64,000 bases of DNA, taken from the IMG/VR virus record IMGVR_UViG_3300031994_005371; one strand, 5' to 3'. Shown here one piece after another: positions 4,653 through 59,867 of the stretch; position 1 is the stretch's first letter, and each line of letters begins with the position of its first letter. The position numbers and the translations under genes are program-made. Below the pieces are notes generated by a model. That model made no database searches. It was not told the origin of the DNA and was given only the letters and a program-made list of their open reading frames with translations. The stretch is from an uncultured virus (IMG/VR IMGVR_UViG_3300031994_005371). Taxonomy: Duplodnaviria; Heunggongvirae; Uroviricota; Caudoviricetes.

Positions 4653-5135
4653 TTAGTCGGCCCAGTGGAACATGTAAGCGCAGGCCTCGTCTTTTTTCGC
4701 GGCCTCCTCCTCGGTGTCGTTCTCGCTTTTGGCGTACTTGCTATCGAACATATCCAGCGCTTTGTAGTACAAATCGGCGTAAAGCTCGGACAGCCCTTGC
4801 TCGTTATTTGCGTGCCAGAACCACGACAAATGATTCAGGCTCATAATAAGCTCGGTGAAGTACTTGTAATCGGACAGCCAGCTGCGCGAGGCGCGGTTGT
4901 AGGTGTCTTTTATCGCGTTGTCCCCGAAGGGCTCGGCCAGGGCGAAATCCGATACAAACGTGGTAAAGCGCTTATATCCGTTATTTTCGCTCATAACCCG
5001 CTCAAAGATACGCTCCATAGCGGCTCCATAGACGAACGGATTGCTCCGGGCCTGCGTGAGAAGTTTCTTGACTCCCGGGCGCATGGCGCGGGCATAGGGG
5101 TTGCTCGTTTGGGTGGCGGTTGCAGTTGTACTCAT
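4653..5135 (-). CDS. Phage hypothetical protein
   Basis: Perfect start motif; 160-aa ORF. Confidence 0.8.
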   Translation of the reverse strand: MSTTATATQTSNPYARAMRPGVKKLLTQARSNPFVYGAAMERIFERVMSENNGYKRFTTFVSDFALAEPFGDNAIKDTYNRASRSWLSDYKYFTELIMSLNHLSWFWHANNEQGLSELYADLYYKALDMFDSKYAKSENDTEEEAAKKDEACAYMFHWAD

Positions 5136-5207
5136 AACTCAAAGATTTAAAAGTTAAACATGGCAGGCGTGGTCCCGGTCAGGGGGCCTCACCCGTTTCA
5201 ATCCTCG

Positions 5208-5474
5208 TTAGTCTTGAATGGCGACATATCGCCACTCGTAGCGGTACTGCCCCCGGGCTCCCGGGGTTTTGGTGTACGTGTTCTTGCAGAGGAGCGCGTC
5301 GCAGTCGGGGTTTATCTTCATCAGCTTATACCCGGCCCGGACGAGGATTTTAACCGCATCTTGAAAATTACTCGGTATCGAGTGGAAGGTAGGCTTATAT
5401 GAGCAAATGACATAGCGCCCGCCCTTTTTACGGTCTGCTCCCTCGGTGAGGAAGGATTTGTTTTTCAGATTCAT
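5208..5474 (-). CDS. Hypothetical protein
   Basis: Variant start motif. Confidence 0.7.
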   Translation of the reverse strand: MNLKNKSFLTEGADRKKGGRYVICSYKPTFHSIPSNFQDAVKILVRAGYKLMKINPDCDALLCKNTYTKTPGARGQYRYEWRYVAIQD

Positions 5475-5533
5475 AACTCAATAGATTTAGATTGTTTTGA
5501 ACCCCGGGCGCGGTATCAGCGCCCCCGGGATTT

Positions 5534-6352
5534 TTAGTCAGATAGTTTGCTAATTATAGCGGCGGTATTTAAGCCCCGCAGCTCGTAAAAAGATACTATC
5601 TTTTTTAGGTGTAGCCCGGCGTTTTTTGCGGCGTTTTCAATGCTGGAGGAGTCCGTAATTGGGGACCCGTGGCCGATTCTAAAATATGTATTTTTCAGTC
5701 CCGGCGCAACTTCCACAAAACGCAAATAATGCCGTCTTAACATGGACGGATTAACGAGGGGGTATGCCGTTTTTTTAATGTCAAGATACTGCGCCGAGTC
5801 CTTGATTCTTACAAACATATTGCAAGTATCATAACTGCCCCGGGAGGCGCTGCATTTAGAACCGAAATAAACGTATAAATTGACTCTATACCCGTTTTTT
5901 TCGAGTCCCATGAGCGCCCCCATGAGGGCGGCGGCGGTATCTTTCAGCTCGTTTGCATCTATATCGCATGAGGCCGTCCCATTATAGCAAATATTCAATA
6001 CTTTGCTATCTTTGTATGATACTCTTTCAGTCCGTATCATTGTTTTAGGAAGTCCCAGGAGGGCGGCGGGTACATTTGCCGCGCCCCCGCATATAGCGTT
6101 AAAACGGCGGGTCCTTTTTCCCTCTCCGAGGGTTTTTACATGGGCCGCAGTTGCTGATTTAAGGGCGGCGGCGCTTTTTTCGTCCCCGTCCCGGAGCAGC
6201 ACGTTTGCGGCTTCGTATGATTCAGTCCCGGAAAAAGACTCGGACCCGGTATGAGAGCCGCATCGATGGCCCTTAAATACCTCGTTTTCCGGGGTTGTAT
6301 CAAGATAGCCCCGGAGCCCGTCCAAATTGCTGAAGGTTTTTGTAATATCCAT
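5534..6352 (-). CDS. Probable VWA-like partner of the AAA+ ATPase
   Basis: Directly downstream of a MoxR/CbbQ-type ATPase; alpha/beta pattern (LNICYNGTAS, YRVNLYV). Confidence 0.55.
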   Translation of the reverse strand: MDITKTFSNLDGLRGYLDTTPENEVFKGHRCGSHTGSESFSGTESYEAANVLLRDGDEKSAAALKSATAAHVKTLGEGKRTRRFNAICGGAANVPAALLGLPKTMIRTERVSYKDSKVLNICYNGTASCDIDANELKDTAAALMGALMGLEKNGYRVNLYVYFGSKCSASRGSYDTCNMFVRIKDSAQYLDIKKTAYPLVNPSMLRRHYLRFVEVAPGLKNTYFRIGHGSPITDSSSIENAAKNAGLHLKKIVSFYELRGLNTAAIISKLSD

Positions 6353-6412
6353 AACTCAAAAATTTAAGATTCAGAACCCCGCCCCCGGTCCCCCGGGCGG
6401 CAGGATTTAATG

Positions 6413-7540
6413 CTACATTGCAAGGGCAAAAGCATTGTTTTTGTGGGTGAGCCCGGCGCGAAGTATGTTGATTTCGTCCCGGTCATAACCGCCCGTAACT
6501 GCAAGACGGACGGCGGCGGCGGTATCAATTCCGGCCTTCATGAACTTTGCGAGGCGGGATATATTTCTATATCCCAGGACGATATGAACCCCGGCCGCGG
6601 CGGCGCTTTTTCTCATGTCATAAATGAACTCGAGAATATCGGACCGCCCCCCGGCGAGGTTTTTCTCAATCTTTGTGCAATAATCAAATTGCATTAAGCA
6701 AAAGCGATTCATGGAGGAGGCATCGATAACGCTGCGGCCCGTGTACTCTTCAGTTGCACCCCGGCCGCAGGTATTTCCGGCCGCGATACAATGAAAATCC
6801 GGGTGCATTTTTTCGCGGCCCCCGGGGAAGGTAAAATACCCGTTTGCGAGGGCGGCGTTTAATGTTACAAGCGTATCCGGGCAGGAGGCGTCGAGCTCAT
6901 CTAACATGAAAACTCCGCCCCGGGTGAAGGCCCGGTAGAATTCCGTTTCATGATAATTGCCGGAGGCATCAAGATAGCCCGTTAATTTGTACTCGTCAGT
7001 TATGGAATTTTGATAGTAAAACTCCAGGCCGAGGGCGCGGGCTATTTGCTCACAAACGTAATTTTTACCGGACCCCGCAGGACCGTAAAGATAGACGGAC
7101 TCGCCGAGCTGCATGAGTTGCAAAAGCGCATCAAAATTTTGGTGCTTAACTTCATCATCTTTGCGGGCGGCGGGTGCGGGCGCGGGGACCGGGACGGGCT
7201 CCGGCATGGGTGCAGGAGCGGGCTCGGGTGCAGGCGTATCTTTGCGGGCGCGGCGGGTTATGTTTTCACGTATCTTTGCATAAGCCTCGGACCCCTCAAA
7301 ACATACGTTTTGCAGTTTTTCAGGACCGGACTCGGCGAGCATTGTAGCGGCTGCAGTTTCAGTCAGAACCCCGGAAAAATCCCCGAGGCGATACATGAAC
7401 TTCCAGCCGTACATGTTACCGAGTTTAGTGTTATTCCATGCAAGGGTATGAGAACCCAAAAACATAGAACCGGACTCGCAAATGATAGCGGATTTTTTGC
7501 CGTTAACATAGCATTTCAAAATGTTTGCATTGTGTTTCAT
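6413..7540 (-). CDS. MoxR/CbbQ/CobS-like AAA+ ATPase
   Basis: Walker A GPAGSGKN, Walker B FMLDELD, IAAGN, DASSMNRF; Pro/Ala linker. Confidence 0.88.
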   Translation of the reverse strand: MKHNANILKCYVNGKKSAIICESGSMFLGSHTLAWNNTKLGNMYGWKFMYRLGDFSGVLTETAAATMLAESGPEKLQNVCFEGSEAYAKIRENITRRARKDTPAPEPAPAPMPEPVPVPAPAPAARKDDEVKHQNFDALLQLMQLGESVYLYGPAGSGKNYVCEQIARALGLEFYYQNSITDEYKLTGYLDASGNYHETEFYRAFTRGGVFMLDELDASCPDTLVTLNAALANGYFTFPGGREKMHPDFHCIAAGNTCGRGATEEYTGRSVIDASSMNRFCLMQFDYCTKIEKNLAGGRSDILEFIYDMRKSAAAAGVHIVLGYRNISRLAKFMKAGIDTAAAVRLAVTGGYDRDEINILRAGLTHKNNAFALAM

Positions 7541-7671
7541 AACTCAAAGATTTAATTGTTTAACATTGGTATTTAAGCGGGGTATCAATCCCGGGAAAAT
7601 AAGCCCGGGCGCCGTATTGCACCCGGGGCGGCAAAAACAATTAAATCTAATTTTTTGAGTTATCGCAAATT

Positions 7672-7878
7672 TCAGATTGTATCAAAACGCCTGCAGTGCT
7701 TCGTTAAAACCATTTTAACGGGCTGCGCAAATAAAACATTTTCAGCGCCCTTCGTTACTTCGGTATTTTCGTACCTTTCAATCTTACTTTTTGCAGTATT
7801 GTCAATGAACTCCCCCGGCGGCGTGGGTCCTTGCATCGTGGATTGTAACGGGGTTTTATCAATCCGGACCCTCGGCAA
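7672..7878 (-). CDS. Possible small hypothetical protein
   Basis: ORF between the promoter and the array. Confidence 0.35.
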   Translation of the reverse strand: MPRVRIDKTPLQSTMQGPTPPGEFIDNTAKSKIERYENTEVTKGAENVLFAQPVKMVLTKHCRRFDTI

Positions 7879-7973
7879 ATAGTTTGTATCTTTGCGCCCG
7901 CTGATGTATCTTCATGTTTCCATGTTACTGCACCTCGGCAGCCGTTTGCGACGGGGCAAAAATCAAATCAAAC

Positions 7974-8022
7974 TATCAAAGAACTGATGCAAAGTTACGA
8001 AATATATTTTAACCGTCAAGAA
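7974..8022 (-). promoter_or_regulatory. Leftward promoter of the accessory array, followed by a boxA-like sequence
   Basis: Minus strand TTGAC...TAACTTTGCA (7988-7997), then AGTTCTTTGATA (7974-7985). Confidence 0.65.
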
Positions 8023-8410
8023 AAAATTTAACTTTTTTTGAAGGGAAGTTGTAAGTTGCATTATATCAATACTTTGCAAGGGGCGCGAAAATGGGCTTAA
8101 TTTTGAATAATTCTAATTTAGAAGGATATTTTAACGGAGGCCGGGGTATATTTTAACGCCCGGCGGCCCTCAATGGACCCCCGGCGGGACGGGTGCAAAG
8201 ATAGGCCCGGCGGCGTATCATGCCAAGCGCCCCAGGGCGAAGGATTGTAAAATAATTTAATAAGCCTCTATTTTGCCCGCTATTGCAAAGTAAGGGCGGC
8301 AAATGATAAATTATATATCCTTTGCGGGAAAATGCCTGCAAGGGCTTAAAAACGGCCAAAACGGGCATAATAGCAAACAAGGGGCCTCACGTGCGCAGGA
8401 GGGGCAAATA

Positions 8411-8452
8411 TCAATACATGAGAATAAAACCCGCGGAAAATACCTATCTTTG
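8411..8452 (+). promoter_or_regulatory. Promoter for the terS-like gene
   Basis: TATCTTTG at 8445-8452; TCAATA box at 8411. Confidence 0.5.
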
Positions 8453-8476
8453 CGGGGTATCTAAACATTTACCAGT

Positions 8477-9007
8477 ATGCCGAAGACGGGATTAGGATTA
8501 GTAAATAAGACGCTCACCGAGCGAGAAAGGGCTGCAATAGCGCTGCATGTCTTTCAGGGCGTCACGGATTGGGCGCTATTATATGCCATAGCGCAGCCGG
8601 GGGCGTATGATAGGGACTTCCCAAAAAATAGCGTTTCCACGTGGAAAAATAGCGCCAAAATACGGGATTTGATACGGGACTATACTGCGGCCAGGGATGC
8701 CCGGGAAAACGCTATAAAAACGGCGGCATTTGAGGAAGGGCAGCGGGTATTGATTGAGCGGGCCGGGACGGATGATAACGGGGCCGGATTGGTGGATTAT
8801 AGTGACCCCAAAAATCAACTGCGGAAGCTAAATTTGCTCGTTAATTCAGCAAAGGACCCCGGCGAAGTGCTCGATGCGCTCAAGGTGATAATTTCCGGGC
8901 AGCGGGATGATAGGCAAGCGGCCCGGGAAGGGCGGCAGGTGCGGGCATATTTGCCGCTATTGTGCTATCAATGCCCGTTATATGAGGAAAAACGTAAAAA
9001 TATATAA
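8477..9007 (+). CDS. Putative terminase small subunit
   Basis: N-terminal HTH-like pattern (TERERAAI...LYAIA...KIRDLI) and helical C-terminus; no other terS candidate seen. Confidence 0.5.
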   Translation: MPKTGLGLVNKTLTERERAAIALHVFQGVTDWALLYAIAQPGAYDRDFPKNSVSTWKNSAKIRDLIRDYTAARDARENAIKTAAFEEGQRVLIERAGTDDNGAGLVDYSDPKNQLRKLNLLVNSAKDPGEVLDALKVIISGQRDDRQAAREGRQVRAYLPLLCYQCPLYEEKRKNI

Positions 9008-9293
9008 ATATTCTAACGTTTTCGGCGCTCAAAATCAAGCATTTAAGGACGCGAGCGGGGCTCGGGCGTGCCGGGGACCGGGGAGGGGGTAAACGGGGGC
9101 CGGACGGGGGCCGGGGGTGTAGACCCAAATTTATTTTTTCAAATTTTTTTCTGGCCTTCCAGCACTACCCTATCCGGCCTTGCGCCATTTCGTTGCGCAT
9201 GCTGTGGGAAAAAGTAACAACCTTGTTACATTTTTAAGCCCCAAAATTTGGCAAATGCAGATTTTTGTAGATTATACGCAACTTTTTCGGTCC

Positions 9294-9522
9294 AAACTTA
9301 CACCAAAAATCGCCATTCTACGGCCTTTAAATGCAGAAAATTGTAACTTTTGTAGATTTCACTATACTCTTTACGCGCATTTGGCAAAAAACTATAAATA
9401 GAATAAAAGAGTACTGCAAAACTTACAAAACTTGCAATTTTCGGCCTCTCGCGCCCTTGTAGTGCCGTTTTCCGTTGTAACTTTACCCTCCAAAACTTGC
9501 AATAAACTTACACAAACTTGCA
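9294..9522 (+). repeat. Six AAACTTRCA direct repeats; putative origin iterons or packaging site
   Basis: Copies at 9294,9419,9428,9493,9504,9514 in a ~600-bp AT-rich region without a convincing ORF. Confidence 0.6.
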
Positions 9523-9618
9523 ATGCCCCGCTTCTTCCAGGGGGCAAAACCGACATAAAAACCGCCTCGGCTCGTTTGTGAACCGGGGCGTTCTTTGGTC
9601 TTACTGGGGAGAAATCGG

Positions 9619-9933
9619 CTATTTCGCCTCTTTCGGGGGCTCGCCTTTGGCTATGAGCCGAAGCTCGGCTCCGCAGCACGGGCAGACAAGCGCCGTCGCG
9701 GTGACTCTTTGGCGCGTGGGGATTGACTCCAGCTCGGACAGCGGGATTTCGGAAATCAGGGTTGCCGGGGTTGTGTCGAGAACGTCCGCAATCTTCTGGA
9801 GCGTATCCAGCGAGATGTTCCCTTTGGTGTAGTACGCGAACGCTTGTTTTGTCACGTCAAGCCTCTTCGCCGCCTCGGTCTGCGTGATGCCTCTTTTTTT
9901 GAGTACGTAAAGTAGATTTTCTTTGAAATTCAT
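9619..9933 (-). CDS. XRE-family HTH transcriptional regulator
   Basis: GITQTEAAKRLDVTKQAF...ISLDTLQKIADVLD. Confidence 0.9.
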   Translation of the reverse strand: MNFKENLLYVLKKRGITQTEAAKRLDVTKQAFAYYTKGNISLDTLQKIADVLDTTPATLISEIPLSELESIPTRQRVTATALVCPCCGAELRLIAKGEPPKEAK

Positions 9934-10072
9934 GTCTTGTTAAATTTTCTTGCAAAAGTAAAGTTAATTTTTTACAAGCGCAAGGAAATGAGAAAAATTC
10001 CGAAAAACTTTCCTCGTCAATAATTCGCAACAACTCTTGCTTTTTGTTTGCGTTTGTGTTATTTTTGCGCCC

Positions 10073-10348
10073 ATGAGAGAAAAGGAATCAAAAAAACTCC
10101 GGGCCTCGGAGAAACTCCCCACTCGTTTCGTGCCGGTCGGCGGGACAATCAGGCGCTATGGCTTTACGTTTGTGGCCGTCAAGCGCCCCGCGGCTTCGCA
10201 GCTTCTTCCGTGCGAGGCTTGCTCCGGGTGCTGGTTTGCCAAAGGCCGCATCGGGGACTTAATCACCAACTGCACGGATATTCAGTGCTCAAAATGGGAC
10301 CGCATGGACGGTCGGAATGTTTGGTTTAAGCTGGAGGACGGGGTATAG
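10073..10348 (+). CDS. Cys-rich hypothetical protein
   Basis: CxxCxxC..C..C...RMDGRNVWF. Confidence 0.7.
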   Translation: MREKESKKLRASEKLPTRFVPVGGTIRRYGFTFVAVKRPAASQLLPCEACSGCWFAKGRIGDLITNCTDIQCSKWDRMDGRNVWFKLEDGV

Positions 10349-10440
10349 AAAACGCCCTTCATAACGAGCTGAAACTCATCCTGGGCCAGCACAAGCCGGA
10401 ATATAAAAGTATTCTGGAGATTCGCGGCTCGCAGGAGAGG

Positions 10441-11670
10441 GTGGATGCGCTGACGCTCCTATGTCGGTCAATTCTCCGGGAGTCCTCGCTATGTTACGTT
10501 GACGGGGTGCTGGTCCACTATGACGGCAAGATTTATTCGGAGATAGAAAACCCCACTTCCGTTACCAACTGCCTTTTTGATATTCTCATGGACTCCGGGA
10601 CGCAGCCCTGGGACGCAAAACGAATCGGGAGTATTATCTTGACGGTGATTTCGGAAAAGTCCTTTGCCCGCTCGCCCTACGTGGCGTTCTCAAACGGGGT
10701 TTTGAATATCAAGACTATGGACTGGTCCGAGGGGTTTAACCCAGGGCGCGTTGTTACTGAATACCTCCCGTATGCTTACGACCCGACGGCCCAATGCCCG
10801 CTGTGGGAAAAATTCTTGAACGAGATTATGCCGGACGAACAGCAGCGGCTCGTCCTCCAGGAGTTCTTCGGCATGGTCTATCTTGACCGCTCCAGCTTCT
10901 CGGTTGAGAAGTTCGCTCTCTTTGTCGGAAAGGGCGCGAACGGAAAAAGTGTCATTTTTGACGTGATGAAAAAGGTTATCGGCGAAAAGTACGTTACTAC
11001 GCTTGATTCCGTCCAGCTCTCCGATGAAAAGATGCTCCCTTATGTAAAAGGCGCGAGGCTGAATTTCTCCCCGGACATGGCGAGCCAAAAAGACTTTTCC
11101 TCGGCCCTTAAGGCCCTTGCCTCCGGGCAGGACGTGACGGGCCGGAAAATCTACGGCGACGCGGAGAAAATCAAATGTCCTCCCCTTTGCTTTGCCATGA
11201 ACGAGCTCCCCCGCTTCCGTGACGTTACCGATGCGTTTTTCCGTCGAATCCTCCTTTTCTCCTTTGAGGTCCAGATTCCACCCCACCGGCAGGACAAACG
11301 GCTCGTTTCCCGCATTTGCGAAAATGACAAGCCGGGCATAATGAACTGGATTCTTCAAGGCCGGTTTCGGCTGATTCGTAGCGGGGGCGAGTTCAGCTAC
11401 TCGGAGAAAATGGAAAAGGACTTGAATATACTCCGTGGAAAGGTCCGCGGGGGTGCGGAATACCCGGTCAAGTCCTACCTCGAGTCCCGTGGGCTCTCCG
11501 TCTATCCGTCCTATGTCGGCCAGGCTCCCGTGCTGATTTCCCGGCAGGAAATCTACGACGGCCTCGGCGGGGCGGTTTCTACTCACATGATTACCCGTGA
11601 GCTTACCGGATTCGGGATTCAAACGATGCGTAGTAAAGAAATGAAATATCGCGTGTATGAGAAAGTATAG
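10441..11670 (+). CDS. D5/P4-type superfamily 3 helicase (primase-associated)
   Basis: AFSNGVL, CPLWEKFLNE, Walker A GKGANGKS, FAMNELP, AFFRRI; frame open from 10330, so the start is uncertain. Confidence 0.88.
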   Translation: MDALTLLCRSILRESSLCYVDGVLVHYDGKIYSEIENPTSVTNCLFDILMDSGTQPWDAKRIGSIILTVISEKSFARSPYVAFSNGVLNIKTMDWSEGFNPGRVVTEYLPYAYDPTAQCPLWEKFLNEIMPDEQQRLVLQEFFGMVYLDRSSFSVEKFALFVGKGANGKSVIFDVMKKVIGEKYVTTLDSVQLSDEKMLPYVKGARLNFSPDMASQKDFSSALKALASGQDVTGRKIYGDAEKIKCPPLCFAMNELPRFRDVTDAFFRRILLFSFEVQIPPHRQDKRLVSRICENDKPGIMNWILQGRFRLIRSGGEFSYSEKMEKDLNILRGKVRGGAEYPVKSYLESRGLSVYPSYVGQAPVLISRQEIYDGLGGAVSTHMITRELTGFGIQTMRSKEMKYRVYEKV

Positions 11671-11842
11671 CCACGTCCCAACGGAGGAACTACATAAGCG
11701 CTGGCTCGCCCTTCGGGACGAGGCTAAACGTACCGGCAAGCACTCGCCGGAGCTGTATGAAATGAGAATGGAACTGGAGCGCCGCCGTGGTTGGCGACCG
11801 CCGGTTGTAGACATAGACTTCACCAAAAACGTACCAGATTAA
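11657..11842 (+). CDS. Hypothetical protein
   Basis: Overlap-coupled ORF. Confidence 0.6.
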   Translation: MRKYSHVPTEELHKRWLALRDEAKRTGKHSPELYEMRMELERRRGWRPPVVDIDFTKNVPD

Positions 11843-11845
11843 GTT

Positions 11846-12718
11846 ATGATTTTTCAGTTTTCGCCCATTCCCGAGGGCTTTTTCGGGGACAGCGGCTTGA
11901 CCGCAACTTCAGCGAATCATATCGCAAACCTCCTGAAGCTCCGCTATGAGCGGATTGAGAACGAGCTTAACTCGCTGAATTTCGTTACCGAACGTATGCA
12001 GGTAGTTGGCATGGATAAGGACGTTATTATGAAAAAAGCGCTCCTTTTCGATGCGGACGAAATCAAGTCACGGCTTGAAGAAGTTGCCATGTGCAAGGGC
12101 TTTATCGCTTTTCTCCGCGAGGCAATCAAGGAGAAAAAGCGCCTTACGGAGGAAATCGAGGACTATACTACGCTGGAGTACCAGACTCTCATGGCTAACC
12201 AGCCCAAGCCGCAGCACCCGATTTCCGAAGAGGAAATCGTCAATGCAATGTCTATTGGCGACCGCGTGCGATACCTTTCTATCGAGGCCCGGGCCGCCAC
12301 GTTCGGAAAGTTCATTCACCCTGGCGGCACTTTGGCGACCGCAAGAAAAGCTGCATTTGAAGCGTTCCAGGAGCCGACGAAGGTTGCAATGGCGGGCCGC
12401 GATACCGTCTTTGTTCACCGCGAAAGCGCTGTTTCTCCCAACGAGATTGACTCGCTGATTTCCGGCCTGCAGGCGGAGCACCGCAAGTCCGAGGCGGAGC
12501 TTAACGGTCTTAACCACGAAATCGACCAAACCCGCGTGCGCGATGCGCAGGACAAAATGGATAAGTACCGTTCCGAAAAGGATAGCTGGGATAAGGAAAC
12601 CAGCCGCTTAAAGAGCGTCATCGACCAGACTCGCGTTGAGCGCAGAAAGGTAATCGAAGAGCTTAAAATCGCCATTCCGAACAAATATCGGGACTTATAC
12701 GAAACCATAAACGGATAA
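11846..12718 (+). CDS. Long coiled-coil protein of unknown function
   Basis: 290-aa helical ORF (GLTATSANHIAN...FGKFIHP). Confidence 0.8.
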   Translation: MIFQFSPIPEGFFGDSGLTATSANHIANLLKLRYERIENELNSLNFVTERMQVVGMDKDVIMKKALLFDADEIKSRLEEVAMCKGFIAFLREAIKEKKRLTEEIEDYTTLEYQTLMANQPKPQHPISEEEIVNAMSIGDRVRYLSIEARAATFGKFIHPGGTLATARKAAFEAFQEPTKVAMAGRDTVFVHRESAVSPNEIDSLISGLQAEHRKSEAELNGLNHEIDQTRVRDAQDKMDKYRSEKDSWDKETSRLKSVIDQTRVERRKVIEELKIAIPNKYRDLYETING

Positions 12719-12746
12719 TCCGGGGCTGAAGGTTTATCCTGAAACC

Positions 12747-13049
12747 CGGACCAACGAAAAGGGCGCATGTTCATTTTTTTCGATAGCGTAGTGCAGAGGT
12801 TAGCACGCTGGATTGGTAATCCGGAGGTCGTCGGTTCAAATCCGACCGCTATTATCATGAGCGCGTTATTTCGCTCGGCATTAAAACGATTTGGAGAATC
12901 GTTTGCACTTGAAATGCAACAAAAATGGCTCCGAACCCAAAAAGTACACGGCTCCGGCCGAACTGACTTTGCCATTGCCCTTGACGGGCTCGGAGGTCCT
13001 TGCCTTTATCCTTGTCGTTGCCTTTGTAACATGCGCCCCAACCGGTCCG
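12747..13049 (+). ncRNA. Candidate structured ncRNA enclosing a tRNA
   Basis: GGGCGCATGTT (12761-71) pairs with AACATGCGCCC (13028-38); CGGACC/GGTCCG outer stem; internal hairpins. Confidence 0.55.
12782..12854 (+). tRNA. tRNA-Thr(GGT)
   Basis: Cloverleaf: GATAGCG/CGCTATT, anticodon loop TTGGTAA, T arm GTCGG-TTCAAAT-CCGAC. Confidence 0.85.
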
Positions 13050-13067
13050 TTTTTAAACTAAATACAC

Positions 13068-13307
13068 ATGGAAACAATCACTATTGCAAAGGTTAAAAAC
13101 CTTATCACGGCACGACCGAAGGAAATGCCGTTTGACGTGTACCGCAAGCTGCGTAAAGAGCAGCAGCTGATGCTCCACGGTTACAGCGTAGTTGAAAAGC
13201 AGAACGGAGTTTTTGTCCGTCGCCACATTCCCGGTCGCCTTGACGGCGTGTGTATTCCGTCAAAGAACTGGACTAACTCGCGCAACGTCCAAATCGTACT
13301 GAAGTAA
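13068..13307 (+). CDS. Hypothetical protein
   Basis: ORF coupled to dut (TAATG). Confidence 0.65.
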   Translation: METITIAKVKNLITARPKEMPFDVYRKLRKEQQLMLHGYSVVEKQNGVFVRRHIPGRLDGVCIPSKNWTNSRNVQIVLK

Positions 13308-13777
13308 TGAGCGTGATAGCAAAAATTATTGCCAGATTAAAGGGGGCCGGAAAAGTCAAAGTTAGGTTCAAGAAACTTAACCCCAATGCCGTTATGCCGG
13401 TAAAGGCTCACCCCACCGACGCGGGCTTTGACCTTGTGGCCGTTTCGTGCTGGCGCGAGAGCGGAAACTACGTGTACGGTACCGGCCTCGCCGTGGAAAT
13501 CCCGGAGGGGTACGTCGGGCTTATCTTCCCCCGCTCGTCTATCTCAAAGGTTGACTTGTTTTTGACAAACGCTGTTGGCGTTATTGATTGCCACTACCGG
13601 GGAGAAATCCTTTTCAAGTTCAAGGCCGCAACCCGGATTCCGTATGGTGTTTATGAGGAAGGGGACCGAATCGGCCAGCTTATCATAATGCCTATTCCAC
13701 AGGTGGAATTTGAGGAGGTGGAGGAGTTGTCTAAAACCGACCGGGGGCGCTGGCGGCTATGGCTCTTCCGGTAAGTA
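13307..13777 (+). CDS. dut: Trimeric dUTPase; motif V frameshifted in this sequence
   Basis: AGFDL, PRSS, GVIDCHYRGEI, RIGQL; RGAGGYGSSG appears only if one G is removed at 13743-47. Confidence 0.9.
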
Positions 13778-13797
13778 ACAAAAATGTTTCATAACCT

Positions 13798-14268
13798 ATG
13801 AAGATACTTAAAAACAACAAAATCAAGCTGGAGCGCGGTGAAACCCGCGTCGGTAACTTCTTCTTTAAGATAGAAGGCGACCACATTAAGATTCAGGACC
13901 TTAACGGCCTTATGTCGTTCCGCGTGCCGCGTAAACGTATGGCTGTCGGCGTATGGCTGGAAAACACGCTCAATCGCGGGGCCGAAGGCGAGGAAACGCT
14001 GAAAGCCTACGCGGCTACCGTGTGGACGTTCCTTGCCCTTGTGCCGGACCAAGAGGCGCTCGGCGGTATTCTGGAGCTTACCAAAGACGCTATGCAGCGT
14101 CACCCGGATTGGTACGGCTATAAGCCCAGCGACGACGAAAAGGCCAATGCCGAAGCCGCCCAGGAAGTCAAGGAAATGACCGAGCTTGAAAAGAGCCTTG
14201 CTGAAATGCCTGCTGGCGAGAAGCCCAAGCGTAAGAGAAAGACCTCCCATGCCGCCAAAAGCGAATAG
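13798..14268 (+). CDS. Hypothetical protein
   Basis: 156-aa ORF in the operon. Confidence 0.75.
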   Translation: MKILKNNKIKLERGETRVGNFFFKIEGDHIKIQDLNGLMSFRVPRKRMAVGVWLENTLNRGAEGEETLKAYAATVWTFLALVPDQEALGGILELTKDAMQRHPDWYGYKPSDDEKANAEAAQEVKEMTELEKSLAEMPAGEKPKRKRKTSHAAKSE

Positions 14269-14437
14269 CACGTTTCGCTATCTCGACTACAAATACCACG
14301 TCGTTACGACCTTTGAGGACGGCGGCGAGGTATATGTGGTCTTGAAGTACTACGGGAAACGCAGGCAGTGGTGGCATTACGAAGTGTGGTCGCTTTTCGA
14401 ATACAATCTTAAAGTAAACGAGAAAAGAAACCTATAA
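14249..14437 (+). CDS. Hypothetical protein
   Basis: Overlapping ORF MPPKANST... Confidence 0.55.
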   Translation: MPPKANSTFRYLDYKYHVVTTFEDGGEVYVVLKYYGKRRQWWHYEVWSLFEYNLKVNEKRNL

Positions 14438-14483
14438 ATTTTCTCCAATATTTGTTGATTTTTATAGGTTTTTCTATCTTTGT

Positions 14484-14562
14484 GAGGAACTTTCTTCAAA
14501 CTGTAACATTCATCACTACTAACTACTAACAAGCCCTCCGTTGTGAAAACGCAGGGCTTTAC
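14484..14562 (+). ncRNA. Candidate sRNA 2
   Basis: TTTG(14451)-N20-TATCTTTG(14475) promoter, C/A-rich unpaired core, AAGCCCT...AGGGCTTT terminator-like hairpin. Confidence 0.45.
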
Positions 14563-14568
14563 TCATAT

Positions 14569-14631
14569 AAAAAGCCTCCCGTTTCCGAGAGGCCAAATCT
14601 TTGAGTTATTTGTAGGCTCGCGCCTAACGGG
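14569..14631 (-). ncRNA. Candidate trans-acting antisense sRNA against the TTTGAGTT-ATG start motif
   Basis: Promoter TTTG-N21-TAATTTTG; hairpin TAGGC-GCGA-GCCTA; core ATAACTCAAAGATTT; terminator GCCTCTCG-GAAA-CGGGAGGC-TTTTT. Confidence 0.75.
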
Positions 14632-14726
14632 TACAAAATTAATGAATTTTTGGCTTTACGCGCAAAAAATTGGCGAAAAGTTCACTTTATTTGCGAAATA
14701 AGCAATAAGGCACAACGGCTATTGGT

Positions 14727-15119
14727 TTAAATTGGCTCGGTAGCCCTTTTTACCTCGCGGAGCTGGATTCCGTGGAAGTAGAGCATCATCTTCCGCTTAA
14801 TCGGGTACTTTTCATCTGGAAAGCCCTTGCAGTCCTCAACAACAATATCTCCGTCTTTCATATAGACGTAATCGGCAACGTAAGTGACGGGCCGTTCAAT
14901 GAGCTTTTGGACGACCTTTTCTTTGGTCTTTAATTTCTTCACTACGGGCCGATATTGGGCCGGGAGTAACGGGAACTCAACCTGCTTACGAAGGTCGCTA
15001 ATTTCGCCCTTTTTGGCCGCTTCTTTGAGAATCAGCCAGCGGTTATATTCCAGCTTTGACGCAAACTCCCCTTCCGAGGTCACTATCTTTTTGTTTCCGT
15101 ATTTTCTGCGTGGTATCAT
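14727..15119 (-). CDS. DUF1064-like PD-(D/E)xK endonuclease
   Basis: KYGNKK..FASKLE..QVEFPL..YVADYVY..VEDCKG. Confidence 0.85.
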   Translation of the reverse strand: MIPRRKYGNKKIVTSEGEFASKLEYNRWLILKEAAKKGEISDLRKQVEFPLLPAQYRPVVKKLKTKEKVVQKLIERPVTYVADYVYMKDGDIVVEDCKGFPDEKYPIKRKMMLYFHGIQLREVKRATEPI

Positions 15120-15856
15120 ATTTCCATAGGTTCAAAGAAATACTCCGGGTAGCATTGGCAACGAGGGTGCGGACGCTCAAACGGTGTTCCGATAGGGATT
15201 TTCTTACCGCAAAGCGAGTCGCACTCCGGGCAGTCGAAGGACGAGCCCCGGTGACGGATATAATAACCCGCCCCTTGCGCCATAGCATCCACCCACTCGG
15301 CATAACGGGCCGCGTCTATAATCAAGTCCGCACCGATTAGCGAGAGCTGGTTATAGATATTGAAACTATATCCCGGCCCCCAGCCCATGCGCTTTATCCC
15401 GGCCTCCCGCCAAAGCGGGCAAAGAAACGGGTTGTTCATGTACCGGGAAATCAGCACCCGCAAATAACCCTTTGTGTAGTTCTTTGCGAGCGCGAGTCCA
15501 ACCCAGACAGAAAGCAGGTCCAAAAGGTGCTCCCCGGCAAGGTCAAAGCTCATACCGGCATACTTTTCGGAAAGGGCCGTTTCAAAGGCCACCTCCTCGT
15601 CCGCATAGTCCAGCGAGTCGGTAATCAGCGTATAGGCAATCTTCCTTGCGTCCTCAATGCAGCCGTCCGACAGCGCAACGCATTGGCGCATGGCCTCTTT
15701 GTAGAGCGTTTCGTCGGCGTCAAAAGAGAAATCAGCGCCGAGGTGCTTGTATTTCCATGCCAGTTCCAAAAGGGCCGCCAGCGCGTCGTTAAATCGCTTT
15801 TTCGACGCACCGGCGAACTCGTTTAGCGAGGCATTTATCTTGTGGTGGTTAAGCAT
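15116..15856 (-). CDS. Head morphogenesis/minor capsid protein (SPP1 gp7-like)
   Basis: Follows the portal; CPECD...HPRCQC C-terminus. Confidence 0.7.
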   Translation of the reverse strand: MLNHHKINASLNEFAGASKKRFNDALAALLELAWKYKHLGADFSFDADETLYKEAMRQCVALSDGCIEDARKIAYTLITDSLDYADEEVAFETALSEKYAGMSFDLAGEHLLDLLSVWVGLALAKNYTKGYLRVLISRYMNNPFLCPLWREAGIKRMGWGPGYSFNIYNQLSLIGADLIIDAARYAEWVDAMAQGAGYYIRHRGSSFDCPECDSLCGKKIPIGTPFERPHPRCQCYPEYFFEPMEI

Positions 15857-17354
15857 TGGTGCGGCTTGCGGTTACGGCGTTGTTCTTAATCTGTTGTGCG
15901 TTTATCTGCGCGGCGGCCACGGCCTCGTCGTGGGCCTCCTGCAGGAGCCTGTTCACCTCGTCCGGGGAAGAATAGCCAATGTTATAGGCGATTTCCGTTG
16001 CGGTCTTTTTAGACATAGCCCCGGCGGCAACAAGCTGCTGAATACCAGAAATCACGTCGTTTTCGGAAAGGAAAATGAACGGGTCCAGATAGGCTTTTAC
16101 TTTGAAAGAAGCAGTATCGCTTGCACGGTTTTCAGAAGTGAAGTAGGCAAACTTGAAGAGGCTTACAACCCCGTTCAGGAATTGCTGGTACTCGATAGAG
16201 TCCGAAAGGGCCTTCAGGTAAGAATCCGCAAAGAGCATCTTGACTGTCCGGGAGGACATATCAGCGCCAGACTTGATTTCGGGCGTTTCCACCGCGAACG
16301 AGCCTCGCATGATATTCTTTTCCATGATTTCCAGCTGCTTTGCAAAAGCGCCGTCAGCGCCCTGCGCGGGCTCCAGGAATCCAACCTTTGCGTTCGGGTC
16401 GATAGAGTCAATACGGTTTGGAGTGCCGTCCGTATTCGTCATTACCTCCATATCCCCGCCGAGGGTATAAAGAATCCTCAAAGCGTAGGCCGCATTGTTT
16501 TCGCTGAACTGCGAAATGCCGATTTCGTAACCGTCAATGATTCCCTGCGAGGCGGTCCAGACGGGGCCGGTATCGCGGCGGTGGTAGCGAACGGGAATAT
16601 CCGGGAAGCCGTGCGGTTTCGGCTCGCCTTCAAGCTCCCAGCCTTCGCCGTCCTCTTTCTTCTTATAAGTGGCAAACGAGGTGCGGTCGATTACGTCCAA
16701 ATACTCATGGGGATTGCCGTCCCAATCTTCCTGCACATACCGGCGGCCAAGAAGCGCCAGCTTGCCGGTCAGCGAGTCGTAGTGTGGATAGAGCGTGTCG
16801 CCACGGTTGTAGGAGAAAACGCGCCAGCCGGGTTTCCCATTGTCGAGATAGACGTAAACAGCAACGTCGCCAATCTTGTAATCCTCCTCAATCGCCTCGT
16901 TGATTGCTACCTCCATATCGTACTCTTCCCAGCCCTCACGGAAGAAGGAAAGGGTGTCAATCATCTTTTGGTTGGTCGCGTCGGAAATCAGCTTCATGCC
17001 GATATTGTTTCCGAGCAGGGCCTCTTTTCGCTTTGTTAAGATTCGCTCCTGAAAGCCGATTGCAATACGGCTTCGCACCTTTGCTTGATACGCACCGGTT
17101 TCCTTATTGACATAAAGGGTATTCGGGTAGTATTTGAGGTGGTTAATCTTGTGCGAGGTCGGAAAGAACTCGCGGTAAAAATCGGCCTGCGTCCGAAGCT
17201 CATGCTGGACGTTTGCAACCGTCTGGACGTAGGGAGCGGATGGGTTTATAATCGGAGTCGTGCCAATGACTCCGGGCGGGATAGGAACGGAAAAGGGCTT
17301 TTTCCGTAAGATTTGTTCGGGTGTCATTGCCCCGATAGACGGAGTAAGTCGCAT
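15849..17354 (-). CDS. Portal protein
   Basis: 501 aa, downstream of terL; HGFPDIPV, MSKKTA patterns of SPP1 gp6-like portals. Confidence 0.8.
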   Translation of the reverse strand: MRLTPSIGAMTPEQILRKKPFSVPIPPGVIGTTPIINPSAPYVQTVANVQHELRTQADFYREFFPTSHKINHLKYYPNTLYVNKETGAYQAKVRSRIAIGFQERILTKRKEALLGNNIGMKLISDATNQKMIDTLSFFREGWEEYDMEVAINEAIEEDYKIGDVAVYVYLDNGKPGWRVFSYNRGDTLYPHYDSLTGKLALLGRRYVQEDWDGNPHEYLDVIDRTSFATYKKKEDGEGWELEGEPKPHGFPDIPVRYHRRDTGPVWTASQGIIDGYEIGISQFSENNAAYALRILYTLGGDMEVMTNTDGTPNRIDSIDPNAKVGFLEPAQGADGAFAKQLEIMEKNIMRGSFAVETPEIKSGADMSSRTVKMLFADSYLKALSDSIEYQQFLNGVVSLFKFAYFTSENRASDTASFKVKAYLDPFIFLSENDVISGIQQLVAAGAMSKKTATEIAYNIGYSSPDEVNRLLQEAHDEAVAAAQINAQQIKNNAVTASRTNA

Positions 17355-17374
17355 GGTATATTCGTTTTAAAATT

Positions 17375-19030
17375 TTAACTTCCAAAAAAGCTCCAGTCGC
17401 CACGGCGCACGCGGCGCGTAGCCTTTGCATTGTCGGCCCGGTCCACCGCGTAGAGCAAAGCCTCGATAAAGTCCGGGGAATGGCCCAGCAGGGCAATCAT
17501 ATCCTTCTTTTTAATCAGCGAGCGGGGGCTTTCATTCTCAATCCATTTCAGCACGATGCGCTCTTGCATGAGCCGCTCTTCGATAGTGAACGGCACGCGC
17601 TTATCCATGAAGATTCTACGAAGCACGTTTTCCTCAATCGACATTTCGCCGTTCTGGATTTTGTCAATGAGAATACCGGCACATTCGGATTTGCGCTTTG
17701 TATATGCCGTTTTGTCCCGTGCCGGGCCTTTGTTGTCAAACGCATGCGCCCGGCGCAGGTCCTCGGACTGGCGGAGCCAGTTACCTACTCCGTTCACGTC
17801 ATAGGCGAAATCCTCATCGGCCACTTCGTTGCGTTTAAGAAAAGCCTTGATGCGAGGCACAACGTCCTCGGCGGTCACGTACTTTATCGCCTCTACGTCA
17901 ATGATATGCCAGCCGTCCATAGCCCAAAGCACAAGCCAGTCACCACGGAGCGCAATATCACCTCCGGCAACCCTGCGCCCGTTCGTTTGGGGGGCGTTTT
18001 GGAAAAACTTATACATATCCCCGGCGGTAATGAGCGAGCCGGTATCGTCAATATCCCGCCAAACGCCCCTAATATCGTTTATAACGGCCTTTGAGCCGCC
18101 GGACGATATTCTGTTCATATACTTCGGGTCGGACGCTTGCAGAATCTTATTTTCGCCAAATTCGCCGTCGATAAACGTAAGCGAGGTAATAAATTCTTTA
18201 TAGTCCCGGTCCGGGTTATCCGTAAGCGAGTTGATTTTGTTGCGGGCGTTGGGGTTGCGATAGACCTCTTCCGGGGTATCGCCCCAAGCGATTTCCGTAA
18301 CGTCCTCGCCGTAACGGCAGAAGTAGCGAATCTTTCCAGAGCGGGCCGGTATCGCCTCGTCCGTTTCCGGGTCAATCCACCAGTCCAGCAGCCAGCGCAG
18401 CTTATTTGATTTACCAACGGGGTTGCAGGTACAAATGAAACGAGCCGGGAGGCCGGTGGTGGAACGGTTGGAGCCCATGAGGTCAAAAATCACGTTCAGG
18501 TTATCCCGGGTGAACTCGGCCAGCTCCTCAATGACAATATAAGGCATTTCCGCACCACGGAAACGGTCTTTTACCGCTTTGAGGTCCGCCAAGTGCTCCA
18601 TTTTCATTGTGGCCCCGGCCCCGCCAAAGAACTTTGCTTCAAAGGACGTGTCGGCGAACGAGGCGAATCCACGGAAGATAGGCTTACAAGACTTCCAAAT
18701 ACCACGCTTTACGTCGTTTTCAAGGCGACGAAAGCCATACATGTTAACGTCGGGGTTTTCCGCGTAGTAAAGAGCACCTATAAGGCTTATGGCTGTTTTG
18801 CCAGCGCCACGTTTTCCTCCGCAAATGGTAATGTCGGCTTTACTGGTTAGCACCTTTTCCTGGAATCCCTCTTGTGGAATCAAATCCCAAATGCGTTTTC
18901 CGAGGCGCTTTTGCTCCAGATTTTCGTGCCGAATCTTTTGTGCGTACTCATACGAATACACCTCGACGCCATATTGCAGAAACACGGGGTCAAGGTACTG
19001 CTTATCGTCTATGACGGTTTGCTCGCTCAT
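17375..19030 (-). CDS. terL: Terminase large subunit
   Basis: PQEGFQ, GGKRGAGKT, IVIEE, TCNP, nuclease GGDIA...YDVNGVG...SPDFIEAL. Confidence 0.9.
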   Translation of the reverse strand: MSEQTVIDDKQYLDPVFLQYGVEVYSYEYAQKIRHENLEQKRLGKRIWDLIPQEGFQEKVLTSKADITICGGKRGAGKTAISLIGALYYAENPDVNMYGFRRLENDVKRGIWKSCKPIFRGFASFADTSFEAKFFGGAGATMKMEHLADLKAVKDRFRGAEMPYIVIEELAEFTRDNLNVIFDLMGSNRSTTGLPARFICTCNPVGKSNKLRWLLDWWIDPETDEAIPARSGKIRYFCRYGEDVTEIAWGDTPEEVYRNPNARNKINSLTDNPDRDYKEFITSLTFIDGEFGENKILQASDPKYMNRISSGGSKAVINDIRGVWRDIDDTGSLITAGDMYKFFQNAPQTNGRRVAGGDIALRGDWLVLWAMDGWHIIDVEAIKYVTAEDVVPRIKAFLKRNEVADEDFAYDVNGVGNWLRQSEDLRRAHAFDNKGPARDKTAYTKRKSECAGILIDKIQNGEMSIEENVLRRIFMDKRVPFTIEERLMQERIVLKWIENESPRSLIKKKDMIALLGHSPDFIEALLYAVDRADNAKATRRVRRGDWSFFGS

Positions 19031-19035
19031 TCTTT

Positions 19036-19110
19036 TGCAAAGATTGTAATTTGTTTTCAATACAAATCAATATTTATTGAAATGTATTGATTTTTTAGCC
19101 TTATATTTGC
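19036..19110. promoter_or_regulatory. Divergent late promoters with four TCAATA/TATTGA boxes
   Basis: TCAATA-N4-TCAATA-N2-TATTGA-N4-TATTGA (19057-19090) between AATCTTTG (minus) and TATATTTG (plus). Confidence 0.6.
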
Positions 19111-19116
19111 CCGTGT

Positions 19117-19278
19117 ATGGACGAAAAGAGCGCAAATACCGGTGTGCAGATTGTCTGCCCGCTTTGCAAGCAGACTTTTCCGGTACGAGTACAAGAACTC
19201 ACGGGAAAGCTGCGGCTCTCGGTCCGATGCCCTCACTGCAAGCGCATTAGCGAGCTTACATTGAGCGATATAAAATAG
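19117..19278 (+). CDS. 53-aa zinc-ribbon protein (Mu Com-like), not in the ORF track
   Basis: MDEKSANTGVQIVCPLCKQ...LSVRCPHCKRISELTLSDIK. Confidence 0.7.
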   Translation: MDEKSANTGVQIVCPLCKQTFPVRVQELTGKLRLSVRCPHCKRISELTLSDIK

Positions 19279-19330
19279 CCAGCGCCATGAGCGCACAATA
19301 GAGGCCACCAGAGTTACATGATAACCGAAT

Positions 19331-19377
19331 AGGCCCGGAGTAGAAATCCCGTGTGGGTTTCCGCTTCGGGTTTTTTG
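19331..19377 (+). terminator. Terminator-like hairpin upstream of the head genes
   Basis: GCCCGGAG...CTTCGGGT followed by a T run. Confidence 0.55.
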
Positions 19378-19402
19378 TATAACCCAGTTCATTGAAAGCA
19401 AA

Positions 19403-20071
19403 ATGAAACAAAAAATTATTGATGCGTTCAAGACGAAGTATTTGAGCTTTGGATTGAGCAACGAGGCTATTGACCGGATTGCCTCTGCATTGGAAAAGAC
19501 AGTCACCAAAGAAGAGGAAATCGCAGAGGCTTTGGCAAAAGTCGATACGATGAACCTTATCGCAAGTGAGCTTCAAAAGATGCGTGACAAGGAGATTCAA
19601 ACGCGAACCGACTTGCAGAACTCTTTTGAGGATTACAAAAAGAAGCACCCCGAAAGCAATCCTGACCCGGACCCCGACCCGGACCCCAACAAGGAACCCG
19701 AATGGGCCAAAACACTGCGCCAGCAGAACGAGCAGCTCCTCGCCCGCCAAAAGGCCGAGGACGATGCAAAAGCCCAGAAGGAACTTATCGCAAGGCTCGA
19801 GGCTGGACTGAAAAAGGCCGGTTGCGTCAATGCCGGTATCCTTGCCGGAGTACTGAAAGGCGTTGCCCTTCAGAAAGACGAAACCGAGGAGGCCGCGATT
19901 GAAAGGCTCAAAGGCGACTATAACGCCTCTGTGAAAGCAATCTTTGGCGACGGCCCTATTCCACCGGCGGCAGGTGGTAGTGCTTTCGGTGACGCAAAGA
20001 CCGCTCTTGACAAAAAGAACGCTTTTCTGCGCCAGCAGGGACTTCTCCCGGAACCCCAAAAAGCACAGTAA
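19403..20071 (+). CDS. Putative capsid scaffolding protein
   Basis: Position before the head genes; helical, with PDPDPDP linker and PEWAK. Confidence 0.65.
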   Translation: MKQKIIDAFKTKYLSFGLSNEAIDRIASALEKTVTKEEEIAEALAKVDTMNLIASELQKMRDKEIQTRTDLQNSFEDYKKKHPESNPDPDPDPDPNKEPEWAKTLRQQNEQLLARQKAEDDAKAQKELIARLEAGLKKAGCVNAGILAGVLKGVALQKDETEEAAIERLKGDYNASVKAIFGDGPIPPAAGGSAFGDAKTALDKKNAFLRQQGLLPEPQKAQ

Positions 20072-59857: not shown

Positions 59858-59867
59858 ACTCAAAGAT

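Follow-up and report, generated by a model that had tools for sequence, protein, structure and literature searches.

The 64,000-nt stretch analyzed here (IMG/VR record IMGVR_UViG_3300031994_005371, an uncultured Caudoviricetes virus; referred to below as the window) is that of a tailed phage or prophage in which about 20 gene starts share a sequence, the 15-nt tag AAATCTTTGAGTTAT, that runs into the start codon. A single inverted copy of this tag lies within a compact unit on the minus strand at positions 14569–14666. The unit probably encodes an antisense RNA that acts in trans on the tagged, non-structural genes by covering their translation initiation regions. The key result is the co-variation of the tags with the complementary stretch of the predicted RNA (the seed): three tag types, those of the TGAGTTATG, TTAGCYATG and TGCCTTATG lineages, were found in related phages, each with a matching seed. 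An initial annotation of the window had proposed that one small RNA (sRNA) gates the tagged genes. The anatomy of the unit, its conservation, the covariation of its stems, the match between seed and tag, and the phage specificity of the tag all support this proposal; transcription, pairing in vivo, the repressive direction and its timing are what we infer.

The coordinates assigned earlier to the promoter (TTTG and TAATTTTG), the 21-nt spacer between its two boxes, the 5′ hairpin, the seed and the terminator were all found to be correct when checked on the minus strand. The parts of the unit are as follows.

14663–14666, minus strand: −33 TTTG of the predicted sRNA promoter (read from the sequence)
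14634–14641, minus strand: −7 box TAATTTTG, of the Bacteroidota TAnnTTTG type (read from the sequence)
14569–14629, minus strand: predicted sRNA of about 61 nt, with an inferred 5′ end and the U-run as its 3′ end (fold; covariance model, 69.6 bits)
14613–14626, minus strand: 5′ hairpin UAGGC-GCGA-GCCUA (5 bp) with a GNRA tetraloop (fold)
14595–14612, minus strand: open seed of 18 nt (unpaired in the predicted fold)
14569–14594, minus strand: intrinsic terminator GGCCUCUCG-GAAA-CGGGAGGCU plus U5, with a 9-bp hairpin (terminator scan)

The seed contains ATAACTCAAAGATTT (14609–14595), the exact reverse complement of the 15-nt tag. In the DNA, the terminator hairpin reads GCCTCTCG-GAAA-CGGGAGGC (14593–14574) and is followed by T5 (14573–14569). 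The promoter layout, TTTG and then TAATTTTG after 21 nt, matches the consensus of the primary Bacteroidota sigma factor as given in the available part of the published account (PMC7366714). Folding of the 61 nt of the minus strand gave −23.2 kcal/mol (z = −3.70), a value equaled by none of 200 shuffled sequences, versus −15.9 kcal/mol (z = −1.81) for the plus strand. The scan reported a terminator on the minus strand only, and the GNRA loops are likewise read only on that strand. One U-G pair in the terminator would become a C-A mismatch if read on the plus strand, and the variant in the relative L005 shifts this wobble one pair on. The unit thereby combines a predicted promoter and an intrinsic terminator on one strand, without an open reading frame (ORF), as an independent RNA gene should. 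A small plus-strand ORF after the inverted tag copy was considered and rejected: the window has TTG-TAG there, L004 and L005 deviate from this, L012 has ATG-TTT-CCA-TAA, and the reading frame is not conserved. In a scan of the whole window against Rfam 15, the sole matches at gathering scores were the six tRNA genes, and the unit matched no curated RNA family, the C4 family included; it therefore lies outside Rfam C4 and the other curated families. A blastn search of 14400–14760 against the phage collection gave no match. Next to the unit, a second hairpin, AAGCCCUCCGUUGUGAAAACGCAGGGCUU on the plus strand at 14530–14560, is the terminator of the convergent plus-strand operon. A sequence much like it, in the opposite orientation, is the own terminator of the sRNA unit in the lineage of the relative G002.

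The tag itself is strongly over-represented. At up to two mismatches, the 15-mer has 17 matches in the window versus 0.13 expected, a number that none of 100 shuffles reached, and TGAGTTATG occurs 16 times versus 0 for a reversed control. Eleven copies are exact. Ten of these are on the minus strand at gene starts; the one remaining copy, at 14595–14609 on the plus strand, is inverted. The final two bases of the ten copies are the AT of an ATG that opens an ORF, and all ten of the starts named initially (831, 1116, 2208, 3194, 3486, 3939, 4564, 5135, 7540 and 53037) were confirmed. The near matches named with them (1630, 2742, 5474, 6352, 51686, 54688, 59857, 60571 and 62747) are likewise present, that at 2742 as GAGTTATG only and that at 5474 with 4 mismatches; we added the start at 4414 (AAATCT-ATG). 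Including such weak variants, about 20 starts are tagged: those of the integrase, 12–13 genes of an array of small ORFan genes, a methylase, a replication-initiator-like gene, three more early genes and the plus-strand gene at 62747. The last had been called a CI-like repressor. This assignment was not supported, as its product matches only phrog_9710, a family of unknown function, and no Pfam family. The tag copies at these starts and in two leaders are listed here.

830–844, minus strand: exact tag; integrase (start 831)
1115–1129, minus strand: exact tag; 79-aa ORFan
1629–1643, minus strand: tag with 1 mismatch (T for C, predicted to pair as G-U); 135-aa ORFan (start 1630)
2207–2221, minus strand: exact tag; 81-aa ORFan
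3193–3207, minus strand: exact tag; 131-aa ORFan
3485–3499, minus strand: exact tag; 78-aa ORFan
3938–3952, minus strand: exact tag; 130-aa ORFan
4563–4577, minus strand: exact tag; 22-codon ORF
5134–5148, minus strand: exact tag; 160-aa ORFan
6351–6365, minus strand: tag with 1 mismatch; DUF7192 protein (start 6352)
7539–7553, minus strand: exact tag; AAA_5 ATPase, the first gene of the array
51685–51699, minus strand: tag with 3 mismatches; replication initiation-like protein (start 51686)
53036–53050, minus strand: exact tag; N6_N4 DNA methylase
54687–54701, minus strand: tag with 2 mismatches; phrog_2113 protein (start 54688)
59855–59869, minus strand: tag variant AAATCTTTGAGT-ATG with 11–12 contiguous bases and a shifted ATG; 97-aa protein (start 59857)
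60569–60583, minus strand: tag variant AAATCTTTGAGA-ATG with 11–12 contiguous bases and a shifted ATG; 173-aa protein (start 60571)
62734–62748, plus strand: tag with 1 mismatch; 112-aa protein at 62747 (phrog_9710, function not known)
7649–7663, plus strand: ORF-less tag copy with 2 mismatches; leader of the plus-strand module
62495–62509, minus strand: ORF-less tag copy with 1 mismatch; leader of the leftward early operon, with a TAACTTTG box upstream

Virion genes are untagged. Between 15 and 47 kb, no gene start carries a tag within 4 mismatches of the 15-mer; the weak look-alikes in this region are 8-base partial matches at 25098 and 34077, neither of which is a gene start, and the starts at 46283 and 29566 described below. 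Two further observations concern tagged sites. About 500 nt of the minus strand at 62100–62650, between the TAACTTTG box near 62650 and the first early gene (62077), contain no convincing ORF; this stretch opens with the tag copy at 62495–62509, has no Rfam match, and could be a structured leader or another non-coding RNA. The 22-codon ORF (4495–4564, minus strand) begins MTIF..., a start that is kept in L002 and L004, and may encode a real micro-protein.

The genome-wide pairing check that had been suggested for the candidate sRNA singled out the same genes. When all 100 called gene starts were ranked by the energy of their duplex with the RNA, the top 18 were all tagged (−15.5 to −24.7 kcal/mol), and the median for ranks 21 and below was −7.25. 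Ranks 19 and 20 were taken by the starts at 46283, which has a 3-mismatch copy, and 29566. Duplexes of the tagged regions with the seed were predicted at −15 to −19.3 kcal/mol. With the seed shuffled, stretches of 10 complementary bases in the window averaged 1.0, with a maximum of 6, compared to 24 observed for the actual seed. Counts of G-U wobbles among the target deviations (83 versus 40 mirror transitions) were uninformative, being dominated by two template Cs at the edge of the seed.

Whether seed and start motif co-vary in related phages had also been proposed as a check, and in all three types they do. The array genes of G002 (63% portal protein identity) are without TGAGTTATG; they carry CTCACTAA, a short spacer and then TGCCTTATG. 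In G002 and L043 together, this composite tag, CTCACTAA..TGCCTTATG, is present in 12 forward copies and 1 inverted copy, versus 1 and 0 for the reversed control. The inverted copy in G002 lies downstream of the portal gene, where the unit of the window also sits, and the unit of this lineage has the seed ACAUAAGGCA..UUAGUGAG together with a TATCTTTG box, a CUUAUG-GAAA-CAUAAG hairpin and a terminator. In L044 the tags are AAATCTTTTTAGC[CT]ATG and the seed is ACAUAGCUAAAAAGAUUUGG; at two positions, the seed has changed in step with the tags. In L038 and L051 the tags have an extra CCTTAAAA box, which is also spanned by the longer seeds of these phages. We then counted sites with at least 11 contiguous bases complementary to each seed, own-genome counts including the site of the RNA gene itself. 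The seed of the window has 17 sites in the window and 19 in G006, and none in L044, G002 or L043. The L044 seed has 5 sites in L044 and at most 1 elsewhere, and the G002 seed has 5 in G002, 1 in L043 and 0 elsewhere, so that the counts fall into clear blocks. The tag counts for L033, L035, L037, L038 and L043 cover 15–21.5 kb only.

The relatives used in these comparisons were gathered by an exact 19-mer and by the portal protein, which gave 9 loci in viral contigs, 4 in genomes and 35 in metagenomes. A covariance model (R1) built from eight units was used to search 55 sources totaling 749 kb and, at E ≤ 0.01, detected the unit in 18 distinct records; two more units, of the G002 lineage, were spotted by eye in L012 and L043. 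In phages with portal identities of 63–100%, the unit adjoins the resolvase gene. Wherever tblastn found a homologue of the DUF1064 resolvase, the unit follows it directly and in the same direction, except in L011, which has no unit after the resolvase, and in L057, where the model match is upstream of the resolvase on the opposite strand. In two relatives, L038 and L039, the module containing the resolvase is flipped with respect to the portal gene, and the unit is flipped with it.

The anatomy of the unit is kept across these phages. Of 21 units, 20 have a [TC]AnnTTTG box 3–12 nt upstream of the 5′ stem; from a background of 0.0006 per position, about 0.006 would be expected per unit. The −33 TTTG is present in 17 of the 21. 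The first loop is of the GNRA type in 15 units and GUGAU in 2 more, and there are at least seven distinct 5′ stem sequences. In 17 units as aligned by the model, 90.6% of the cells in the stems are paired versus 40–54% with a slid partner, and both-sided changes occur in 14 of the 17 stem pairs (5 of 6 in the 5′ hairpin and 9 of 11 in the terminator); none of 500 shuffles reached the observed values. Separate folds of the units give the same three-part shape. Among the units folded in this way, the 8 of the TGAGTTATG lineage all leave the seed open, and those of L012 and L009 pair it in part. The 6.3-kb contig of L009 has two tandem sRNA-like units on the plus strand (4257–4331 and 4369–4442). 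Both have a TACCTTTG box and a terminator of their own. The two seeds are not identical yet have UUUAAGGGUU in common, and the model matched one of the two; the predicted target of an L009 unit, a 17-mer, found only unrelated single matches in viral contigs. One further candidate, G081, showed an excess of the 11-mer and a covariance match of 34.5 bits. It was rejected as unrelated, the match being an ordinary terminator. Many contigs of G081, which belongs to the same order as G010, contain TGAGTTATG as 7-nt tandem repeats (303 occurrences versus 30 for the control).

The tag is phage-specific and not a feature of host gene starts. In the metagenomic bin that contains the relative L029 (2.1 Mb), all 5 copies of TTTGAGTTATG are on the phage contig. 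Among 201 genomes of one order, tag counts were near those of the reversed control, mostly 0–10 per genome; the 64-kb window has 15 copies, with 0 for its control. The bin and the 201 genomes served as stand-ins for the genome of the true host. We also considered that the tag might be a promoter, that is, a −7 box (AAtcTTTG) for leaderless messages. L038 loses the TTTG part and keeps TGAGTTATG, and in each of L037, L041 and L010 one tagged gene has its own −7 box 17–22 nt upstream. This places the tag in the 5′ untranslated region, and the promoter explanation was rejected.

The earlier account had overlooked a GC-rich hairpin that precedes nearly every tag, and with it the fact that hairpin and tag together form a shuffling cassette. 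The hairpins are found at 800–7600 and 51–63 kb of the window and also in G002, L035, L037 and L038. They have variable stems and a recurring loop of approximately YTGAYAC or GTGAnAC, with no U-run following in the sense direction; possible roles are those of a terminator, of RNA end protection or of a protein site. Homology between the arrays of the window and G006 breaks at the cassette junctions (3251/3927 and 5204/5484), with whole genes replaced in between, and the hairpin plus tag therefore also marks gene-shuffling joints. Isolated matches of 55–74 bp to other, more distant relatives fall on cassettes as well. Read backwards, the inverted copy and its hairpin have the layout of a target cassette (GC hairpin, then tag), and weak matches to the covariance model (E of 0.04–1) were found on the antisense strand of target cassettes. 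In integrons, the integrase gene is divergent from the array at attI, and attC sites with RYYYAAC/GTTRRRY cores follow each cassette. An integron cassette array was rejected here, since the integrase gene is the last of the array, on the same strand and itself tagged, and since the tag also occurs in the replication module at 51–63 kb. No attC core was seen.

The integrase gene (1–831, minus strand) ends the minus-strand ORFan array, which spans 877–7540. A plus-strand module with primase and dUTPase follows at about 7.7–14.4 kb. A minus-strand block running from 19030 down to 14727 encodes the large terminase, the portal protein, a 246-aa protein and the DUF1064 resolvase. Beyond this packaging block are genes for head, tape-measure and a 2704-aa tail protein (30091–38205, plus strand), and then, a few genes downstream of the latter, a diversity-generating-type reverse transcriptase (40920–42122, plus strand). 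A long replication and recombination operon occupies the minus strand between 62.6 and 47 kb. Among named phages, the closest are LoVEphage, BI-TP1 and PV4-TP1 (LoVEphage-like isolates of Bacteroides and Phocaeicola), with 31% portal identity. No cultured carrier of the system was found; BI-TP1 (71.6 kb) has no start tag, and its commonest 9-mer before ATG is ATAAAAATG, found 9 times. One relative was located in a Candidatus Cryptobacteroides bin. Because of these nearest named phages, this bin and the Bacteroidota-type promoter boxes, the host most likely belongs to the Bacteroidales of the gut or rumen.

According to our best explanation, the phage is a temperate Bacteroidales siphophage. 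Host RNA polymerase carrying the primary Bacteroidota sigma factor would start a few bases after the TAATTTTG box and stop at the GAAA-looped terminator. This would yield an RNA of about 60 nt in which 18 open nucleotides separate a short 5′ hairpin with a GNRA loop from the terminator hairpin. The open stretch would pair with 15 nt (up to 25 nt in relatives) ending on or within the AUG. Its targets would be about 20 phage mRNAs or cistrons and the two tagged operon leaders, with predicted duplexes of −15 to −25 kcal/mol. Bacteroidota do not use Shine-Dalgarno pairing and need an open, A/U-rich initiation region, and such a duplex should therefore keep the 30S subunit off; it may also invite duplex cleavage as a second effect. 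The finding that the seed covers the AUG itself in 15 of the 21 units speaks for repression. One RNA would then turn off the integrase, the ORFan cassette array, the methylase, and replication and early genes. The tag would travel with the GC-hairpin cassette at gene-swap junctions, so that a newly acquired gene would arrive already addressed. With regard to timing, the host-type promoter would allow expression in the lysogen, where the RNA would silence leaky early and integrase messages in the manner of the c4 RNA of phages P1 and P7. The position of the unit at the end of the late packaging block would suit a late shut-off of early genes in the manner of the T4 protein RegA. Bacteroides are without Hfq and ProQ, and long seeds are seemingly needed there, according to the available text of PMC7366714.

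Several observations weigh against this explanation. Model R1 leans to one seed type: the L043 unit scored 18.5 bits, and that in L012 was missed (it was searched as L019, the same record). The stem counts rest on an alignment that was fitted by the model and is biased toward the structure by construction. In the lineage of the window, the seed ends one base before the G of the AUG, and the tagged regions are predicted to be only moderately open (mean unpaired values of 0.36–0.63). The long relatives L011/G004 and L056 (portal identity 69–76%) have neither a model match nor a tag in the available DNA, and the same is true, for unit and tag, of relatives at about 50% portal identity; the system is therefore confined to one clade. 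Four metatranscriptome runs (shares of 0.05–0.16), compared with positions 1–20000 as assembled contigs only, list no contig over 14569–14666, which counts neither for nor against transcription. The unit could be made solely as the 3′ end of the resolvase mRNA, and the co-variation of seed and tag could be due in part to concerted evolution of the cassettes. Finally, because of its backward cassette layout and the weak antisense model matches, the RNA gene may have arisen from an inverted cassette.

Among the alternatives to an RNA that occludes the initiation region, the strongest retains the RNA and its pairing with the tags and has it act by duplex-specific cleavage, by premature termination in tagged leaders or by activation of translation. 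We consider this unlikely. Premature termination is what the CI RNA of P4 causes, and the two ORF-less tag copies (7649–7663 and 62495–62509) are situated in operon leaders. Duplexes of 15–25 bp would be sufficient for a double-strand RNase, and the GC hairpin before nearly every tag could shield the upstream fragment after a cut. The sRNA SviR of the PLE satellite both reduces translation and changes mRNA processing, according to the available part of its description (bioRxiv 10.1101/2022.04.08.487710). However, occlusion fits best with a seed that lies over the AUG in most units, and activation is made unlikely by the same observation. Cleavage and occlusion are inseparable from sequence, and both can act together.

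We see little chance that the inverted copy acts as double-stranded DNA, either as the site of a regulator or as the relic of a cassette inversion, with the hairpins being terminators of two convergent operons. The unit does lie between convergent operons, with the second hairpin at 14530–14560, and both the mirrored cassette layout and the weak antisense matches described above speak for this reading. A DNA site, however, leaves unexplained the −7 box that 20 of 21 units have at a constant, short spacing, the 5′ hairpin whose stem changes while its pairing and GNRA loop are kept, the G-U pairs allowed only on the minus strand, and the fact that the tag at every other site lies on the AUG and keeps the same orientation relative to transcription. 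A relic would also not be expected to stay at one syntenic place through a complete change of the tag sequence. Least probable of all is that the tag exists as a translation enhancer or recombination joint and the complementary unit is a by-product without a regulatory role: the replacement of whole genes between cassette junctions resembles the PeSL cassettes, as far as these are described in the available text of PMC2839356 and PMC4122927, and a translation-initiation role was proposed by the authors for a start-codon motif of Cluster K phages (PMC3203893), but if the unit were a by-product, its promoter, structure and matching seed would not have persisted across 18 records and three tag types, and the joint and address roles are compatible in a single tag.

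The initial annotation had not recognized the system as one already described. This is correct in that no partner RNA is known for such tags; start-codon tags themselves are in print as the start-associated sequences (SAS) and ESAS of Cluster K mycobacteriophages, the closest published analogue. Their function has been stated as unknown since 2011, with an RNA or protein partner left open (PMC3203893). Like the tag, SAS are short asymmetric motifs near the start codon of many genes, mostly ATG and in essentially one orientation; they occur only in the non-structural half of the phage genome, are missing from that of the host, and are accompanied by a single inverted copy away from a gene start, in the layout of the inverted copy found here (PMC3203893). 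About half of the sites are preceded by the inverted repeat of ESAS, comparable to the GC hairpin (PMC3203893). The tag of the window likewise is asymmetric, marks the starts of many non-structural genes in a single orientation, has a rare inverted copy away from a start, and is absent from the host-background genomes. The two differ in sequence and position, as GGGATAGGAGCCC of SAS has a Shine-Dalgarno core and stands 3–7 bp before the start, whereas AAATCTTTGAGTTAT has no such core and runs into the AUG. The host phylum is another one and there is no sequence likeness, making SAS an analogue and not a homologue. No partner RNA has been described for SAS, whereas the inverted copy in the window has a promoter, a structure and a terminator and co-varies with the tag. 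In a 2025 analysis of 188 phages on SAS, the words antisense and sRNA occur 0 times.

By mechanism, the closest systems are the c4 RNA and, as a protein, RegA. The CI RNA of P4 is a similar trans-acting satellite RNA. c4 is processed from a longer transcript, whereas the unit here has its own predicted promoter. c4 and CI act on two target sites in a single operon, compared to about 20 sites over at least three transcription units in the window. The likeness to c4 is that of a small, structured, trans-acting phage RNA whose exposed bases pair with repeated complementary sites at the ribosome binding region of messages of the same phage and keep lytic functions off, as summarized in the available part of PMC12197685. 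RegA, as covered by the available text of PMC3014915, is one product that competes with the ribosome at about 30 early mRNAs, on A/U-rich unstructured sites at or just 5′ of the AUG; it is a protein with loose sequence recognition, whereas the recognizer here would be an exactly complementary RNA. The PeSLs of T4-like phages are repeated stem-loop cassettes between small ORFans with swap breakpoints at the cassettes (PMC2839356, PMC4122927, in their available parts). They contain an early promoter, which the tag is not, and the same parts describe no antisense partner. GibS of Bacteroides thetaiotaomicron shares the promoter type, a host without Hfq and ProQ, and long single-stranded seeds (available text of PMC7366714), and SviR of the Vibrio PLE satellite is an sRNA of a mobile element that has multiple targets, both in its own genome and in that of a rival (bioRxiv 10.1101/2022.04.08.487710, available part). 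Both differ in being chromosomal or satellite RNAs with heterogeneous target sites and no uniform tag on a phage's own genes. A limited literature search found no publication on such an RNA in Bacteroidota phages, and the word stem Bacteroid does not occur in the available part of a 2025 review of phage sRNAs (PMC12197685).

We tentatively suggest, at somewhat below even confidence, that start-codon tags are addresses for phage antisense RNAs in general, a convergent strategy that would also explain the SAS and ESAS of Cluster K. On that general reading, a phage would tag its non-structural and newly acquired cassette genes at the AUG and could silence all of them together via one RNA, whose gene would derive from an inverted cassette, and this RNA would do the job of RegA in hosts without Shine-Dalgarno pairing and Hfq. 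For the phages described here, an antisense role of the unit would mean that a virus encodes a regulon held together by a uniform sequence address and not by a protein, in which a 60-nt RNA would control about one-fifth of the phage's genes, including the integrase and the variable cassette genes. Bacteroidota phages would have a global translational switch suited to hosts that do without Shine-Dalgarno-led initiation, Hfq and ProQ, and new genes would be wired into this switch by arriving in a tagged cassette. The tag and the RNA together would provide a compact natural part for multi-gene control in gut Bacteroidales, and the purpose of phage start-associated sequences would have a testable answer.

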